Position numbers and translations under genes: made by a program
Source of the DNA: Patescibacteria group bacterium
GTDB taxonomy: Bacteria > Patescibacteriota > Kazan-3B-28 > UBA10110
Length of the DNA: 64,000 nucleotides
NCBI GenBank assembly: GCA_041659905.1
Contig: JBAZXK010000002.1
Location: 30,723 to 94,722 of the forward strand
Reading direction: 5' to 3'
Notes under the pieces: model-generated
Told to the model about the DNA's origin: nothing
The model's database searches: none
Seen by the model: only the letters and a program-made list of their open reading frames with translations
Part shown: piece by piece, positions 14,770 through 60,672 of the stretch
How the letters are laid out: each line of letters begins with the position of its first letter
Numbering within the stretch: the first letter of the stretch is position 1

Positions 14770-14992
14770 TGGCCCTCCTTTTTCATGAATTTGAGGTCAA
14801 AGATCATGCAGAACTACTTCTGCTTAACCCAAACTTACCTCATTAAACAGAATTAGTCCATATGACGGTCTCTACAGGCACAAATGAGACAATGGCAAGG
14901 GGATATGAAAATATCTCATATATGGCCTAATAATCAGTCTAATAGTCAAATCAACCAAGATAGGCACCTCGGTCATTTGATTCGTTTTTATT

Positions 14993-15275
14993 TGGCTCCG
15001 GGGGAGGGATTCGAACCCACGACCAATTGATTACACAAATCCATAATTTTCATTATGGCGTGGACTATATCTTTACCATGCCTCATTTGGAGAGGTTTAG
15101 GCATCTCGGTATCTAGTCTCTACGGCGCCCTCAATTTTAAATTGAGGTTCCCACGGTGTTAACATATCTCACGACTTAGTCTTCACCGTTATCCCAAGAT
15201 GTTCACTTTGGCGTTTCCACCAAAGGCTGCGTTTTATGATCACAGTCAACTGCTCTACCGCTGAGCTACCCCGGA
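14993..15275 (-). tRNA. tRNA-Asn (anticodon GUU) interrupted by a 208-nt group I intron
   Basis: The 5' exon is 15275..15242 (UCCGGGGUAGCUCAGCGGUAGAGCAGUUGACUGU). The 3' exon is 15033..14993 (UAAUCAAUUGGUCGUGGGUUCGAAUCCCUCCCCCGGAGCCA). Joined, they give a 75-nt cloverleaf with anticodon loop CUGUUAA, a U1:A72 pair and a G73 discriminator, as in bacterial tRNA-Asn. Confidence 0.8.
15034..15241 (-). ncRNA. group I self-splicing intron (ORF-less) in tRNA-Asn anticodon loop
   Basis: The 5' exon ends in U, which can pair as U.G with a GCAG guide sequence about 12 nt into the intron. There is a P2 hairpin CUUUGG...CCAAAG. GUAGAGACUAGA and AAGAUAUAGUCC elements are present, and the intron ends in G. 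Confidence 0.75.
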
Positions 15276-15305
15276 TTGTCAAATTACTTACCTATATATT
15301 CTAAC

Positions 15306-21831: not shown

Positions 21832-21919
21832 TGGCGGAGAGGGCGGGATTTGAACCCGCGATACCTTGCGGTATGCCCGCTTTCCAAGCGAGTGCACTAG
21901 GCCACTATGCGACCTCTCC
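21832..21919 (-). tRNA. tRNA-Ser (anticodon GGA)
   Basis: Cloverleaf with anticodon loop UUGGAAA, a long variable arm, a G73 discriminator and encoded CCA. Confidence 0.85.
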
Positions 21920-22017
21920 ACTAAACGCCTCTCGGCGCAATTAACCAATTGCCAATTTAACCAATGTGCACCAATATAACACCAATTACCTTATTATTGT
22001 AGCAGGAGTTAGTATAC

Positions 22018-22241
22018 GATTCTGGAGTCGCTTTGTAAGCTCCCCAGAATGACGCCCAAGCCAGCCATTGGAGGAGGGATGTTCTGAATTGAGCCAAATC
22101 CTTGGCGCGGGGAGATGTTTGAGGCCGATGTGCTATCGGCCGAGTTTCGACCTAAAGCGGTAAGAGGATTTGGCCAATGAATAATCCCGACGAACGAGCT
22201 GGGACTTTGGTGTTACCTTTCTAGAAAGGTAACAGAAAAAA
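22018..22241. repeat. ~220-bp intergenic element, copy A
   Basis: Begins TTCTGGAGTC...CCATTGGAGGAGGGATGT. Ends GACTTTGGTGTTACCTTTCTAGAAAGGTAACAGAAAAAA. Homologous in order and ends to 58130..58337. Confidence 0.5.
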
Positions 22242-22244
22242 TGA

Positions 22245-22320
22245 TTTCTGGAGATCCTGAAACAAGTTCAGGATGACGGGAAGAAAAAGGCCTAGATTCC
22301 GGATCAAGTCCGGAATGACA
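22245..22320. repeat. cluster of hairpin-TGACR miniature repeats
   Basis: CTGGAGATCCTGAAacaagTTCAGGATGACGG and TTCCGGAtcaagTCCGGAATGACA. These are short hairpins each followed by (A/G)TGAC(A/G). Confidence 0.45.
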
Positions 22321-22345
22321 AAAAATCATAGGAAACTACATAGGG

Positions 22346-22374
22346 TTGACGGGAAGGGCAAAATGCCCTACACT
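22346..22374 (+). promoter_or_regulatory. putative sigma-70 promoter for rpsF-ssb-rpsR
   Basis: TTGACG, 17 bp spacer, TACACT. It lies about 80 bp upstream of the rpsF start. Confidence 0.35.
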
Positions 22375-22455
22375 CGGATTACTTTATAACTTAACCTTTT
22401 CTCCCCTTCGACCATGCTCAGGGGGATTCCCCATGGGAAAGGAAATTTTTTGCTT

Positions 22456-23085
22456 ATGGAAGAAAATAATGTCTATGAATTAGCTGTGGTTATCTCCCCT
22501 GACCTATCAGAGTTCGATGTCCAAAAGATTGTCGACAAGGTCAAAATCTCTATTGCCTCTAAGGGAGGTTCGGCTCAACAGGAACATACTTGGGGGAAAA
22601 AGCGCTTGGCTTATCCCATCGGTAAAGCCGAGTTTGGGTATTATCAGACCTTGATTTTCGACTCCCCTAAAGAGGCTATTGCCGAAATCGATAAAGATAT
22701 TAGACTAACCCCGGAAATCATTCGGCATTTGATTATCTCATTGGAAAAAGAAGGAATCACGGCAGAGCAATTATTTACACCTGAGAAAGAAGCGGTTTTG
22801 ATCGCGACGATAGCCAAAGAAAAAATGGAACCGAGCCGGCCACATCAGACTAGAGCGAGTAGAGGCAGGATAACGCCGGCGATAGTTGCGGATATTCCAG
22901 GAACCAAAGATTCTGGAGTCGCCCCAGAGGAAAGCTCCCCTGCCTACCGGCAGGCAGGCCAGAATGATGACATAAAAGAGGTGGTAGATATTGCTGAGCC
23001 TGTGGTAGAAGAGACTGCCGATGAAGCGGCCAAGCGGAGAGAAGAATTAGATAAGAAATTAGACGAATTATTAAAAGAAGAATAG
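22456..23085 (+). CDS. rpsF: 30S ribosomal protein S6 with long acidic C-terminal extension
   Basis: YELAVVISPDL...WGKKRLAYPI...GYY S6 core. The Met at 22456 is preceded by a GGGAAAGGAAA ribosome-binding site. The ORF-track start at 22414 is probably too early. Confidence 0.85.
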   Translation: MEENNVYELAVVISPDLSEFDVQKIVDKVKISIASKGGSAQQEHTWGKKRLAYPIGKAEFGYYQTLIFDSPKEAIAEIDKDIRLTPEIIRHLIISLEKEGITAEQLFTPEKEAVLIATIAKEKMEPSRPHQTRASRGRITPAIVADIPGTKDSGVAPEESSPAYRQAGQNDDIKEVVDIAEPVVEETADEAAKRREELDKKLDELLKEE

Positions 23086-23100
23086 AGATTCCTCGACAAG

Positions 23101-23155
23101 CTCGGAATGACACTCTTTCTGTCATCCTGAGCGGAGTCCTTTCTGGACGGAGTCG
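23101..23155. repeat. hairpin-TGACR miniature repeat between rpsF and ssb
   Basis: CTCGGAATGACActctttcTGTCATCCTGAGCGGAGTCCtttctGGACGGAGTC. Confidence 0.45.
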
Positions 23156-24613: not shown

Positions 24614-24691
24614 CGACATATTCCTTGTGTCGTCATCCCTGCCTACCGGTAGGCAGGCTCGCCTCGTCGGGGATCGTATAAATTAATATAA

Positions 24692-57489: not shown

Positions 57490-57792
57490 CTACAGATTAA
57501 TCAAAGAATATCTAATTATTTGTTTTAGTGACGATTTACCTTTATCTGTCTTAAAGTATCTTTCACGTCTTATGGCATCTCTCTTATCTTTGAAAGCTTC
57601 ATAAAATATAAGTTTAAACGGTCGGCGATCTTTTGTTGATCTCACTAAACCCTTTTGGTGTTCCTGAAACCGTTTCTGCAAATCAGTAGAATAACCAATA
57701 TACAATTTATTATCTTTCTGGCTTTTTAATACGTATGTGTAATACATAAAATTACAGGCGTCCATAAACCACTCGGGTTTATGGCTCGCCAT
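57490..57792 (-). CDS. GIY-YIG nuclease domain protein (UPF0213/YhbQ-like)
   Basis: YYTYVL...KLYIGYSTDLQKRFQEH GIY-YIG core. 100 aa. Wedged 3 nt after one tRNA-Ser and 17 nt before another. Confidence 0.75.
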   Translation of the reverse strand: MASHKPEWFMDACNFMYYTYVLKSQKDNKLYIGYSTDLQKRFQEHQKGLVRSTKDRRPFKLIFYEAFKDKRDAIRRERYFKTDKGKSSLKQIIRYSLINL

Positions 57793-57808: not shown

Positions 57809-57901
57809 TGGCGGTGAGGGAGGGATTCGAACCCTCGCGGGGGATTTCTCCCCCCTACCGGTTTAGCAAACCAGCCCCTTCAGCCTCTTGGGTACCTCAC
57901 C
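57809..57901 (-). tRNA. tRNA-Ser (anticodon GCU)
   Basis: Long D-loop and variable arm, anticodon loop UUGCUAA, G73 discriminator, encoded CCA. Confidence 0.85.
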
Positions 57902-58129
57902 GTGTCGGAACGGCCTCCGCTCCGGCAGTTTGCCAATTAGGATTGGCAAACTTTACCGCTTCGTTGTTCCTCCTTTCCAAATTACAAACAGCACTCCGTG
58001 CTTCGGTTTGTAATTTAGGGAAATCAGCAAAGCTGATTTCATAACCTATCCACCTATATTAAGGTAAGTATCTGACTATTTAAGAATACCATCAATATAC
58101 CTCTCCTGAAAAAGGGGTTGTACCAACCC

Positions 58130-58337
58130 TTCTTGGAGTCCAGAGCCGCCATTGAAGGAGGGATGTATTTTTTGTCTGCAACCCGGGCATTGGAGTTTGA
58201 GCGTTACGGTTCAATAAAATTGGCGCTGTGAAGCCGGTTATACCGGCGAGAACGGAAAGCCATATTTTATTAGAACCGCAGCAAAAACGACTGTCCGGAG
58301 ACTTTGGTTACTTTCCTTGGGAAAGTAACAGAAAAAA
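58130..58337. repeat. ~210-bp intergenic element, copy B
   Basis: Begins TTCTTGGAGTC...CCATTGAAGGAGGGATGT. Ends GACTTTGGTTACTTTCCTTGGGAAAGTAACAGAAAAAA. A plus-strand hairpin with T-run follows at 58346..58386. Confidence 0.5.
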
Positions 58338-58341
58338 GTCC

Positions 58342-60672
58342 TCAAAAGCCCACTTGGATAAAATCTTGGTAAGTGGCTTTTTTAGCTAATTCTTTCTCTG
58401 GGTCAATCACCCCAATTTCCCCGACTAAGGCATCCCACAATTCTAGCAACTCTCCGGCGATGGGTGTTTGATAGATCTCTCCCCCATTATCAGCAGTAAA
58501 AATAAATTCTGCTGGCGTAGTCACTCCCAGATCGGCGATATTGTAAATAAAATTAACTCCCATCTTGCTGAACACGCCATTATCAAGAGGAGCACGGCTA
58601 AAATGATCGTCGTAATCATTATGAATACCATCTCTCATGGTGTCATCAAAACCCACCCCCCCTACTCCCACAGAAGTAATGCCAGAAGGAAAGATATCCA
58701 ACCGATCCAGCCCATTATCCAGATCGTCCTCGGGCGAATAGGTAATAATTTGCTTAACTACCATATCCTTATCAAAAAGCCGAGACTCTCCTCGTAAAGC
58801 TATTTTAGTCGGCATATCTAACAGCTCTTTGATGACTAAACGAATTTTATTCCGAGCCTCATAAGCTTTTAACATTTCTAAATTTCCTCCGGCAGCGATA
58901 GATTTATTCCAACCCACCATATTGGCAACCTGAGTAGCTTTATACGCTTGGCCAATACCAAGTCGTAAATTATTCAGAGCCTCAGGCGTGCCTAAGGCTT
59001 CGACCAGGGCTGTTATTTGGCTATTGCTTAAAGTGCTGGGATCCAGGCCAATTTCATTTTGGAGATTCGAAAAAACATTATTGGCTTGGGATAGATAATC
59101 TTGAGTACGGTCATCTAGTTTAGTTATAGCGGCAGCCCGATCTAATAAATTTTTAACTCGGTTGATAAATTGAAAATACTGCACAAAGAACAGCTTATTG
59201 AGAGGGGCATTCTGCAAGGCTGCCACAATTTGATCATGATTTTTATCAGTCAAGAAAACCCGGTAGTCAGCCATGGTGGTGTCCAACCAACCCGCCACAT
59301 AACCCAATTCTTCCCAAAGCGGCCGGACCTCAGCTTCGGCCAGAGTTCTTTGCCAACTAATTTCGATAGGTTGTCCCGACATCTCTGGAATTTGACTGCG
59401 ATCTACTGCCACAATCGCCAGGGCTTGTCCTTCAGAAAAAGCGGTGAAGGCTCCCAGTTCCTCTGTACTCTCTTCTCCGTCGCTACTATAGGCAGCTAAA
59501 CTTTTAACTAATTTGTAGCGCGATTGGCGCGGAGAGTTAGTTTTAATCAAACCGATCTTTAAATAATCATGGAGATCAGACAAGTACGAGATGGTACGCA
59601 ATAGTCGGTAATCCAAGGTGTGCGTACACGGCCCGCTGGTACCGCAGTTCCATTGGTTTAAATCTCCTATACCTGAACTATAAATCACCAAACTGCCGTT
59701 GGTCACTTTTTCTTGGAGACTATGGATAAACTCATTATTAACTGCCATCATATTACCTTCACTGTCTCGTGTGACTTCGCTGGCCGGAGCTACTAGTTCA
59801 GTTTTAACCGAACCACCCGCCTCGCTCATATTGCCATTGCGTCCACAGGTGAATATGCCGATGATAATGACAAATATCAGTATGATGATCAAAATTACCC
59901 AGCCGACCGGATTAGATACCAAAAATACCACTGCCTCCGTGATAGCATGAATAGCCACCTGGGCAGCCTGTACGGCTGCTTGGTAAACCGCTTGCGCCGC
60001 TTGGGCCGCAGCTTGTGCCATTCTAATACTCACCTCAATGGCTTTTTGGGCAACTTGCACTGTTCTTTGAGCAACTTGCACTGTTCTTTGGGCAACTTGC
60101 ACTGTTCTTTGGGCAATTTGCACTGCTCTTTTGGCCGCCTCTGCTGCTTCGCGAATTTTTTGCGGCGTTTCGATAATTCTTTTGGCTGTTTCCGCAGCTT
60201 CCTTCACTTTGTTAGCAGTCTGCCCCGCTAACCGCTGGGTTTTTTGCAGAGGGCTTTCGGCCGGTTGATTTTGTTGATCAGATGAATTATTTTGTGAAGA
60301 ACCACCCATCCGGCCAGCTGCACCGCGCGCCAACTGCCCAGCACCACGCAAACCTTGTTTGCCCAAATTAGCCGCTTTCCCTTTCCAACCTCCCGCTCCC
60401 CCCACTTTCGGAGTACTAGCTGGACGTTTTCCGGCAGTAGCTAATTTATTAGGCTGAGTTGACCGATCTGCTGGTTTTTCTTGTTGTCGAGTTTGATGTT
60501 TTTTCTCTTTAGTAGGCGAGGTGCGTCTTGGTTCCCGCGACGATTGCCTCGCAGGTTCTTCGGCGGTTGGTTCCGTTTCAGCCTCTTCTGATACAGGTTG
60601 GTCCTCTTCTGGGTTCAGATTTTCCTCTAACGGTTCTTGGTCGAGATCTTCATTGGTATCCTGATCAACCAT
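58342..60672 (-). CDS. large single-pass membrane protein with cytoplasmic acidic/basic low-complexity and heptad-repeat region, and ~480-aa extracytoplasmic domain
   Basis: 776 aa. AQRTVQV heptads encoded by 21-bp tandem repeats. TM helix VVFLVSNPVGWVILIIILIFVIIIGIF. Ends 4 nt from the PEGA gene. Confidence 0.6.
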   Translation of the reverse strand: MVDQDTNEDLDQEPLEENLNPEEDQPVSEEAETEPTAEEPARQSSREPRRTSPTKEKKHQTRQQEKPADRSTQPNKLATAGKRPASTPKVGGAGGWKGKAANLGKQGLRGAGQLARGAAGRMGGSSQNNSSDQQNQPAESPLQKTQRLAGQTANKVKEAAETAKRIIETPQKIREAAEAAKRAVQIAQRTVQVAQRTVQVAQRTVQVAQKAIEVSIRMAQAAAQAAQAVYQAAVQAAQVAIHAITEAVVFLVSNPVGWVILIIILIFVIIIGIFTCGRNGNMSEAGGSVKTELVAPASEVTRDSEGNMMAVNNEFIHSLQEKVTNGSLVIYSSGIGDLNQWNCGTSGPCTHTLDYRLLRTISYLSDLHDYLKIGLIKTNSPRQSRYKLVKSLAAYSSDGEESTEELGAFTAFSEGQALAIVAVDRSQIPEMSGQPIEISWQRTLAEAEVRPLWEELGYVAGWLDTTMADYRVFLTDKNHDQIVAALQNAPLNKLFFVQYFQFINRVKNLLDRAAAITKLDDRTQDYLSQANNVFSNLQNEIGLDPSTLSNSQITALVEALGTPEALNNLRLGIGQAYKATQVANMVGWNKSIAAGGNLEMLKAYEARNKIRLVIKELLDMPTKIALRGESRLFDKDMVVKQIITYSPEDDLDNGLDRLDIFPSGITSVGVGGVGFDDTMRDGIHNDYDDHFSRAPLDNGVFSKMGVNFIYNIADLGVTTPAEFIFTADNGGEIYQTPIAGELLELWDALVGEIGVIDPEKELAKKATYQDFIQVGF
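60049..60132. repeat. 4 x 21-bp tandem repeat (GGGCAACTTGCACTGTTCTTT) inside CDS
   Basis: Four near-identical direct 21-mers. They encode (AQRTVQV)x4 in the 58342..60672 protein. Confidence 0.8.

Follow-up and report, generated by a model that had tools for sequence, protein, structure and literature searches.

What are the two intergenic regions of similar sequence that lie beside tRNA-Ser genes in this 64,000-nucleotide (nt) stretch of a Patescibacteria genome (assembly GCA_041659905.1, contig JBAZXK010000002.1, positions 30,723 to 94,722; hereafter the window)? A first-pass annotation had noticed ordered blocks common to both and proposed either a structured small RNA or leader with a mini open reading frame (ORF), or a non-autonomous mobile element resembling a miniature inverted-repeat transposable element (MITE) and aimed at tRNA-Ser flanks. 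We find that both regions, here copy A and copy B, are members (subtypes 1b and 4) of one uncatalogued structured element family, that this family is confined to Saccharibacteria-like Patescibacteria, and that the element DNA behaves as an insertion or replacement cassette. Coordinates are those of the window and are collected in Table 1.

Two subtypes of one structured family

The blocks listed in the first-pass annotation are all present at the coordinates it gave, and the neighbours it named are correct: the tRNA-Ser genes, rpsF beside copy A (with ssb, rpsR and efp following) and, adjoining copy B, a convergent gene, an ORF of 776 amino acids (aa) that ends at 58342. Both elements lie 5' of their tRNA-Ser gene and point away from it. 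An 18-mer that we call block 1, CCATTGRAGGAGGGATGT, occurs exactly twice in the 64 kb, at 22065 and 58149, and no third site appears even with three mismatches, a tolerance at which shuffled sequences yield 0.1 matches. Common to both copies is also a 3' module made of GACTTTGG, a 10-bp hairpin and then GTAACAGAAAAAA or AGAAAAAA, and each region folds on the plus strand far better than its shuffles (z about -5.3 to -5.4).

Two covariance models tie the regions together. Model R1 was built from 15 subtype-1 copies with a hand-drawn structure, and R2 from five subtype-4 copies taken from other genomes, with the window excluded. In the window R1 has exactly two matches, 22053-22205 (153 bits) and 58175-58301 (20.8 bits), while R2 gives the copy B core 116.6 bits (E 1.4e-26) and copy A 23.5 bits; neither model finds a third copy there. 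Because each model scores both copies, A and B represent two subfamilies of a single family, and the regions are homologous, as had been claimed. The boundaries drawn in the annotation need some correction. The sequence TTCTGGAGTC, taken as the start of the element, is indeed there, but in copy A it is part of a separate repetitive extragenic palindromic (REP)-like hairpin at 22018-22053. The block containing the 18-mer in copy B (CCATTGAAGGAGGGATGT, 58146-58166) is likewise present, but it is an orphan 5' fragment; the complete core begins after it and has its own box, CCGGGCATTGGAG / CCGGGCAUUGGAG, at 58183.

The family extends well beyond the window. An exact 18-mer scan of 185,579 genomes, one per GTDB species, returned 26 loci, 19 of them clear homologues, all in Candidatus Saccharibacteria or in metagenome-assembled genomes (MAGs) named 'Patescibacteria group'; the other seven, in unrelated phyla, are chance matches. 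A metagenome scan supplied 14 further copies, and the covariance models added divergent copies without the 18-mer, R1 alone giving 38 matches in the collected sequences. Viral contigs held two matches only, both by chance and inside coding sequence. The element is about 170-230 nt long, and a genome carries two to six copies or more: CAYGIK has six, CAYGXX three, and the complete 560-kb chromosome OY968788.1 also three. Copies can cluster: one Saccharibacteria contig (L008, 4104-6992) carries a subtype 1a copy and two subtype 4 copies within 3 kb, all three in the same orientation. When the window was searched against Rfam 15, at the gathering thresholds and at E up to 10, tRNAs, one group I intron and one 23S fragment passed and none of these lies over either element; scans of 17 homologous loci gave no family matching the element, and in the literature on structured RNAs, kink-turns and repeats of Saccharibacteria and the candidate phyla radiation (CPR) we found no description of it.

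The alignments give the following plan on the plus strand. A 5' pyrimidine-rich tract of ~12-15 nt precedes the closing helix P1 (CCRGCCA/UGGYYGG), inside which lies a near-invariant internal loop, 5' UUGGAG(GA) opposite 3' (GA)CGA(A)C, kept in nearly all of at least 38 copies. Helix P2 (GGGAUGU/AYAAUCCC) leads into a kink-turn-like module, that is, a 3-nt bulge, GA opposite GA on the other strand (tandem G.A/A.G) and a short non-canonical (NC) stem. The remainder of the core consists of a long helix P3/P4, which covaries freely and is wholly different in sequence between subtypes, a second conserved asymmetric loop (UGUUUGA/GAGUU), and a hypervariable apical hairpin that tolerates insertions; small inserted hairpins occur at a few tolerated points, namely the apex, the junction beside the kink-turn and the internal loop. 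After P1 comes GACUUUGG and then hairpin H1, with the CUUU of GACUUUGG pairing with an A-rich tail to form a lower stem. The similarity of the two copies is thus more than one of low-complexity A-runs, as the A-run pairs with this CUUU and lengthens the 3' hairpin. The 5' pyrimidine tract might also pair with the purine loop, but base composition alone accounts for their complementarity, and the one copy whose loop has changed (the divergent L010:7090) still has the same kind of pyrimidine-rich flank.

The proposal of a structured RNA is strongly supported by covariation. In an alignment of 38 copies the paired fraction of cells is 89.6%, compared with 70% after shuffling, and 38 of the 44 pairs have substitutions on both sides. 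The covariation score reaches 0.406, where shuffles give 0.143 (0 of 500 as high) and slid-partner controls 0.03-0.08. These figures are somewhat inflated by an alignment fitted to the model. The switches in P2 and P3 are nevertheless plain by eye: P2 reads GGGAU/AUCCC, GGAAC/GUUCC, GGGUC/GACCU, CGGC/GCCG, CCC-GA-AU/AU-GA-GGG or UUU/AAA. The arms of H1 covary in the same manner (GUUAC/GUAAC, GCCAC/GUGGC, GUGUC/GACAC, GCUACC/GGUAGC), as do the stems flanking the kink-turn-like module (helices 2 and 3), and 11 copies have an H-type pseudoknot 3' of H1 whose stem sequences are different in each and whose pairing almost no shuffle equals.

The plus strand is the structured one: G.U pairs outnumber A.C pairs (79 versus 34), the conserved tandem GA turns into UC/UC when the complement is read, and on the minus strand the U-runs come before the hairpins, not after them. 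The same three observations rule out a minus-strand 3' untranslated region (UTR) or terminator, a reading further disfavoured by REP-like hairpins with U-tracts that seem to terminate the convergent genes before the element is reached.

Judged by its sequence, the element carries a kink-turn signature (AUGU-NNU-GA-AUUG / CAAU-GA-AUAAU), with canonical (C) stem, 3-nt bulge, tandem G.A/A.G and NC stem. This is the order of parts in kink-turn RNAs such as box C/D small RNAs, the U4 5' stem-loop and the SAM-I and T-box leaders, with their L7Ae/YbxF-type binders. In the element the motif, GGGAUGU-NNU-GA-AUUG / CAAU-GA-AUAAUCCC, has both stems covarying, whereas overall architecture and size are unrelated to those RNAs; the likeness is one of sequence, and in two copies (L019:4310 and L046:2202) Watson-Crick pairs stand in for G.A.

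An insertion point between tRNA-Ser(GGA) and rpsF

The behaviour of the element as DNA is best seen at the locus of copy A, which we compared across nine lineages, the window included, with relatives fetched through homologues of ribosomal protein S6. The arrangement tRNA-Ser(GGA)/rpsF-ssb-rpsR-efp-ychF is conserved, and one precise point in it is variable, between ATTATTGTAGCAGG(AG), where the divergent tRNA promoter has its extended -10, and (G)TTGACn, the -35 of rpsF. The site is empty in L051/52 (S6 73% identical to that of the window) and in L057/58 (60%), and L048-50 (74%) have one 45-nt insert that is mainly a REP-like hairpin; such a hairpin alone fills the site in L050. The window has a 336-nt composite of a REP-like hairpin, the subtype 1b element and two more REP-like hairpins. 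Elsewhere the point is occupied by a 1a-like element (L053, 58%), an orphan fragment and subtype 4 (L055/56, 63%), a REP-like hairpin, an orphan fragment and subtype 4 (L059/60, 46%), subtype 4 with insertions (L054, 49%) or a subtype 3-like element (L061, 51% over a partial match), the last adjoined by a near-identical copy of the window's first REP-like hairpin. An element is thus present in six of the nine lineages, always in rpsF orientation and of differing subtype, and the rpsF promoter and conserved 5' UTR are intact with or without it.

Such a pattern calls for insertion at a target, for loss that is precise, or for the exchange of one subtype for another by way of the end modules they have in common, and it fits neither a fixed, vertically inherited gene nor an rpsF leader. 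It is the combination of differing subtypes and empty sites, the latter in two of the lineages nearest to the window, that marks the element as a cassette subject to insertion or replacement. Where the S6 proteins of two genomes are 58-63% identical, the element retains 83-92% nucleotide identity, compared with 89-94% for tRNA-Ser, 80-83% for rpsR and 70-78% for rpsF, which means either strong constraint or recent movement. Two Logan contigs from independent assemblies, with the identical S6 gene (L001 and L002), both break at the equivalent of window position ~22296, inside the REP-like hairpins beside copy A, consistent with repeat-induced assembly breaks.

The proposal that the element targets tRNA-Ser flanks does not survive the wider comparison. 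None of the 19 genome-scan copies adjoins a tRNA-Ser gene, and only two have any tRNA within ~200 nt; the link with tRNA-Ser(GGA) stems from the conserved tRNA-Ser/rpsF synteny at a single hot spot. The comparison with MITEs holds in part. The element is multi-copy, sits at non-syntenic places, often at contig ends, and is present or absent at rpsF, but it has no terminal inverted repeats and shows no clear target-site duplication. Its ends are the pyrimidine tract and a hairpin with an A-rich tail, and only the 5-7 bp of P1, which are internal, are complementary. The left flank ATTATTGTAGCAGGAG and the right flank GTTGACG, contiguous in L051 (GCAGGAG-GTTGACG, hyphens marking junctions), are separated in the window as GCAGGAG-TTAGTA... 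and ...CATAGG-GTTGACG, with no clear duplication and with an insertion that is a composite with REP-like hairpins. No transposase was found among the window ORFs scanned, and no protein recurs beside the 19 loci. At least 17 of about 41 copies are preceded by orphan 5' fragments of ~20 nt that belong to another subtype and in some cases form a tandem pair; the arrangement seen in copy B, where such a fragment stands before the core, is also found in L028, L012 and L010.

Table 1. Coordinates of the two copies, their parts and their neighbours in the window.
Feature	Position	Strand	Remarks
tRNA-Ser(GGA)	21832-21919	minus	ARAGORN
Composite insertion	22009..22344	+	336 nt versus empty orthologous site; REP-like hairpin 1, copy A, REP-like hairpins 2 and 3
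Copy A region	22018..22241	+	between tRNA-Ser(GGA) and rpsF
REP-like hairpin 1	22018..22053	+	ends GAATGAC, holds TTCTGGAGTC; z -3.3; separate small repeat family
Copy A core	22053..22205	+	subtype 1b; R1 153.2 bits, E 3e-40
Copy A P1	22061-22067 / 22196-22202	+	model structure
Copy A internal loop	22068-22075 / 22189-22195	+	UUGGAGGA / GACGAAC
Copy A P2, 5' strand	22076-22082	+	GGGAUGU
Copy A kink-turn bulge and GA	22083-22087	+	UCU + GA
Copy A apical hairpin		+	GGCCGAU...AUCGGCC
Copy A 3' module	22203..22241	+	GACUUUGG, H1 GUUACCUUUCUAGAAAGGUAAC (22212-22233), A-rich tail pairing back to CUUU
REP-like hairpins 2 and 3	22253-22277 and 22295-22319	+	end GGATGAC/GAATGAC
rpsF promoter-like site	22346..22374	+	TTGACG-17-TACACT; downstream of copy A, kept in relatives; not part of element
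Further REP-like hairpins	23085-23111 (23097), ~45412, ~62275 (minus)		
tRNA-Ser(GCU)	57809-57901	minus	ARAGORN
Degenerate UUGGAG-type box and pyrimidine tract	58129..58145	+	CTTCTTGGAGTCCAGAG
Orphan 5' fragment and U-rich linker	58146..58182	+	subtype-2 element, CCGCCATTGAAGGAGGGATGT; no 3' partner strand
Copy B core	58175..58301	+	subtype 4; R2 116.6 bits, E 1.4e-26; R1 20.8 bits; fold z -5.4
Copy B P1	58183-58189 / 58292-58298	+	CCGGGCA / UGUCCGG
Copy B internal loop	58190-58195 / 58288-58291	+	UUGGAG / CGAC
Copy B further parts	within 58175..58301	+	UUU-GA-GCG arm of P2, long helix, apical hairpin GCCGGUUAUACCGGC
Copy B 3' module	58299..58337	+	AGACUUUGG, H1 GUUACUUUCCUUGGGAAAGUAAC, A-rich tail pairing with GACUUU; z -2.9
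Hairpin and U6	58344..58392	+	overlaps end of convergent coding sequence; bidirectional in form; -10.4 kcal/mol, z -0.9

The position of copy A upstream of rpsF also invites the reading of a cis-acting leader or attenuator, in which a start-stop mini-ORF would control the downstream gene. The strong SD-like GGAGGA (after Shine-Dalgarno, SD) lies 4 nt before an AUG, every type 1 or type 2 copy has UGA or UAA in frame within 1-2 codons after it, six of the nine lineages have the element upstream of rpsF in the same orientation, and the pyrimidine tract is able to pair with the SD-like loop. The appearance of an SD, an ATG and a tiny ORF is, however, explained by the RNA structure: these are the purine loop, the P2 5' strand (GGGAUGU) and the kink-turn bulge with its GA, so that AUG and UGA are base-paired or within the kink-turn. 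The stretch AUGUNNUGA, the 3' end of P2 plus the bulge and its GA, always carries the in-frame stop, and no peptide is conserved, the reading being M-F-stop in copy A, 22 aa in copy B, and M-stop, M-Y-stop or M-C-stop in other copies. Subtype 4, the copy B core included, has no AUG at that position. The rpsF promoter and 5' UTR lie downstream of the element and persist in relatives that lack it, and about 15 of 17 other copies have a convergent gene downstream. We therefore regard the mini-ORF leader suggested in the annotation as essentially excluded.

The known RpsF leader (Rfam RF02893) resembles the element in that copy A and five relatives stand upstream of rpsF; it differs in that the element is upstream of the promoter, not in the 5' UTR, and the conserved rpsF 5' UTR (~22381-22455) is a separate sequence. 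Against a gathering score of 37, the sole Rfam match, to this model, reaches 14.5 bits (E 8.1) on the minus, and thus wrong, strand of copy B, and there is none in copy A. The 5' UTR itself (22381-22455, and in L050, L051 and L053-L059) is highly conserved as ACTTTATAACTTAACCTTTTCTCCCC-hairpin-GGGGAYTCCCCATGGGAAAGGAAATTTTTTGCTTATGG, and the Rfam RpsF_leader model gives no match over it; its hairpin loop (TTCGACNNNGCTCAG) is identical to the loop of the REP-like hairpins in several lineages. The longest rpsF ORF runs from 22414, but a database protein (209 aa, 100% identical) and all relatives begin at ATGGAAGA, position 22456, which is probably the true start.

Stable RNA, selfish repeat or guide

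The reading that we favour, and consider probable with some reserve, is that of an uncatalogued structured RNA family, transcribed from the plus strand as a stable, protein-bound RNA and carried on a mobile or recombining cassette. The element would be transcribed on its plus strand, and our best guess is that the stable product would be bound by a protein recognising the kink-turn; the invariant loop may be the working surface, binding protein or a pyrimidine-rich RNA, and recombination in the conserved 5' and 3' modules, not a transposase of the copies themselves, would spread or exchange them. The hairpin and T-run that the annotation saw after copy B exist at ~58344-58392, but they are weak (Table 1); they are a possible terminator of a copy B transcript. 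Upstream of the core, the degenerate CTTCTTGGAGTCCAGAG box stretch overlaps a terminator-like hairpin on the minus strand (58115-58129). We also tried to read the orphan TTGGAG box and TAAnCC as -35 and -10 elements, and rejected this: the transcript would then begin within or beyond P1, whose 5' strand nevertheless covaries.

Several points weigh against this reading. Some copies lack the space for a separate promoter (L020 and L024 start ~20-25 nt after the terminator of the upstream gene), and a canonical plus-strand terminator is seen in few. An all-against-all BLAST of the neighbours at the 19 loci gave no shared gene family that could be a partner, and Pfam searches of ~40 window ORFs found housekeeping genes only, with no kink-turn-binding protein identified among them. 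The mechanism of spread is deduced from end states alone. On the side of the evidence for structure, besides the inflation of the covariation figures mentioned above, copies were collected by means of exact motifs, a choice that accounts for part of the invariance of block 1. Finally, single-stranded DNA can form sheared G.A and G.T pairs as well, and a DNA-level hairpin is therefore conceivable, although RNA is the more natural reading in view of the kink-turn-like module and the pseudoknot.

The main rival assigns the RNA no role in trans and takes the element for an intergenic repeat that is purely selfish, comparable to ERIC, BOX, Correia or REPIN elements. Its hairpin would serve only its own propagation or mRNA stability, and an enzyme of the host, or one otherwise unlinked, would mobilise it. 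ERIC/IRU, the pneumococcal BOX and the Neisseria Correia repeats are imperfect palindromes of 100-250 nt, multi-copy, intergenic and modular, that form RNA hairpins. The present element is similarly a multi-copy intergenic imperfect palindrome with presence and absence at orthologous loci, clean at rpsF, and shares with these repeats a variable middle between conserved ends, as well as insertions at set internal positions. Its dispersal over non-syntenic sites and contig ends, its usual position between convergent genes, the frequency of orphan fragments and nested small repeats, and the REP-like hairpins regularly alongside all favour this reading. On the other hand, there is no sequence similarity to those repeats, and unlike them the element has asymmetric conserved loops, a kink-turn-like module and a covarying 3' pseudoknot, lacks terminal inverted repeats and occurs in Patescibacteria only. 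Near-invariant loops and a kink-turn-like motif kept across subtypes whose helices have wholly diverged count against pure selfishness, as do the pseudoknot, the conservation at tRNA level between genomes with distant S6 proteins, and the absence of a clear target-site duplication. We hold the selfish repeat to be unlikely, while taking it seriously.

A guide-type RNA akin to the IS110 bridge RNAs or to TIGR stem-loop units would be another way to explain site-specific insertion at rpsF. In TIGR units, box C (CCA) and box D (UG) flank two spacers of 8-12 nt, and Tas proteins of a CPR clade are reported in association with stem arrays (PMC12045711). The element, too, is a stem-loop found in CPR bacteria whose internal loop has two short strands in such a frame (GCCA-UUGGAGGA and GACGAAC-UGGC), which might pair with a target for an unlinked Nop-domain or recombinase protein. 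But these would-be spacers are essentially invariant between copies and genomes and so not programmable, the inner flank is GG/CCC instead of UG/CCA, copies are dispersed and not in regular arrays, and no Nop-domain or IS110-type recombinase gene lies beside any copy or among the window ORFs scanned. The copy at L010:7090, with its altered loop and retained pyrimidine-rich flank, counts against guiding as well. A match between the loop strands (GGAGG, GACGA) and the rpsF insertion site was dismissed, as it exists in L051 only and not in the other lineages. Overall, a guide function appears very improbable.

Returning to the stable RNA that we favour, a more specific version can be imagined, though we think it improbable as stated: a trans-acting ribonucleoprotein (RNP) RNA class specific to Saccharibacteria and CPR, in which the UUGGAGGA loop, an SD mimic beside a forced start-stop, and the kink-turn would recruit a protein or the 30S anti-SD and so tie the RNA to the biology of the ribosome or of the rpsF operon, its cassettes spreading by an undescribed recombination that leaves orphan 5' fragments behind. 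As a separate observation, the window encodes a 92-aa protein with a single RRM (2618-2896, minus; Pfam RRM_1, E 2.6e-22), a possible RNA-binding partner for small RNAs, and nothing ties it to the element.

Small repeats, introns and the meaning of the family

Small REP-like hairpins ending in GGATGAC or GAATGAC are abundant around the element, in both orientations and sometimes as inverted pairs, and lie beside or inside many copies elsewhere. Read on the opposite strand and followed by a U-rich run, they resemble terminators of convergent genes. A 20-nt perfect palindrome, CCTGCCTACCGGYAGGCAGG, is found at 22939-22958 and 24638-24657 in the window (0 expected) and also inside element copies in L017 and L020. 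One of its copies, together with a REP-like hairpin, lies inside a 3' extension of the rpsF reading frame, and these small repeats thus appear to insert into coding sequence.

A group I intron on the minus strand of the window (14990-15290; Rfam 68.8 bits over 15041-15251) interrupts a tRNA gene missed by ARAGORN just downstream of rpoD; the exons, ending in GUUGACU and resuming with UGUAAUCAAUU, probably belong to tRNA-Thr(UGU), split between positions 33 and 34. A stand-alone GIY-YIG nuclease ORF of 100 aa (57490-57792, minus) lies between tRNA-Ser(UGA) and tRNA-Ser(GCU). Among the relatives, a 245-aa LAGLIDADG ORF inside or overlapping tRNA-Ser(GGA) in L054 (831-1635), L059 (361-1130) and L060 suggests an intron with a homing endonuclease in that gene.

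Saccharibacteria and other CPR bacteria have tiny, streamlined genomes, and to our knowledge almost nothing is known of their non-coding RNAs. In such genomes, a multi-copy element of ~200 nt with a kink-turn-like module, invariant loops, a covarying pseudoknot and near-tRNA conservation is unlikely to be neutral. The uncatalogued structured RNA or cassette family described here is real, and more than a pair of similar spacers. For genome analysis, it explains assembly breaks in these MAGs, and annotators should not call the SD-ATG mini-ORF within it. The tRNA-Ser(GGA)/rpsF interval, with its empty, REP-only and filled states, offers a defined locus at which the movement of such cassettes can be studied. 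For the biology of these candidate-phyla bacteria, the element is new in either case, whether as an RNP RNA or as a kind of structured mobile cassette.

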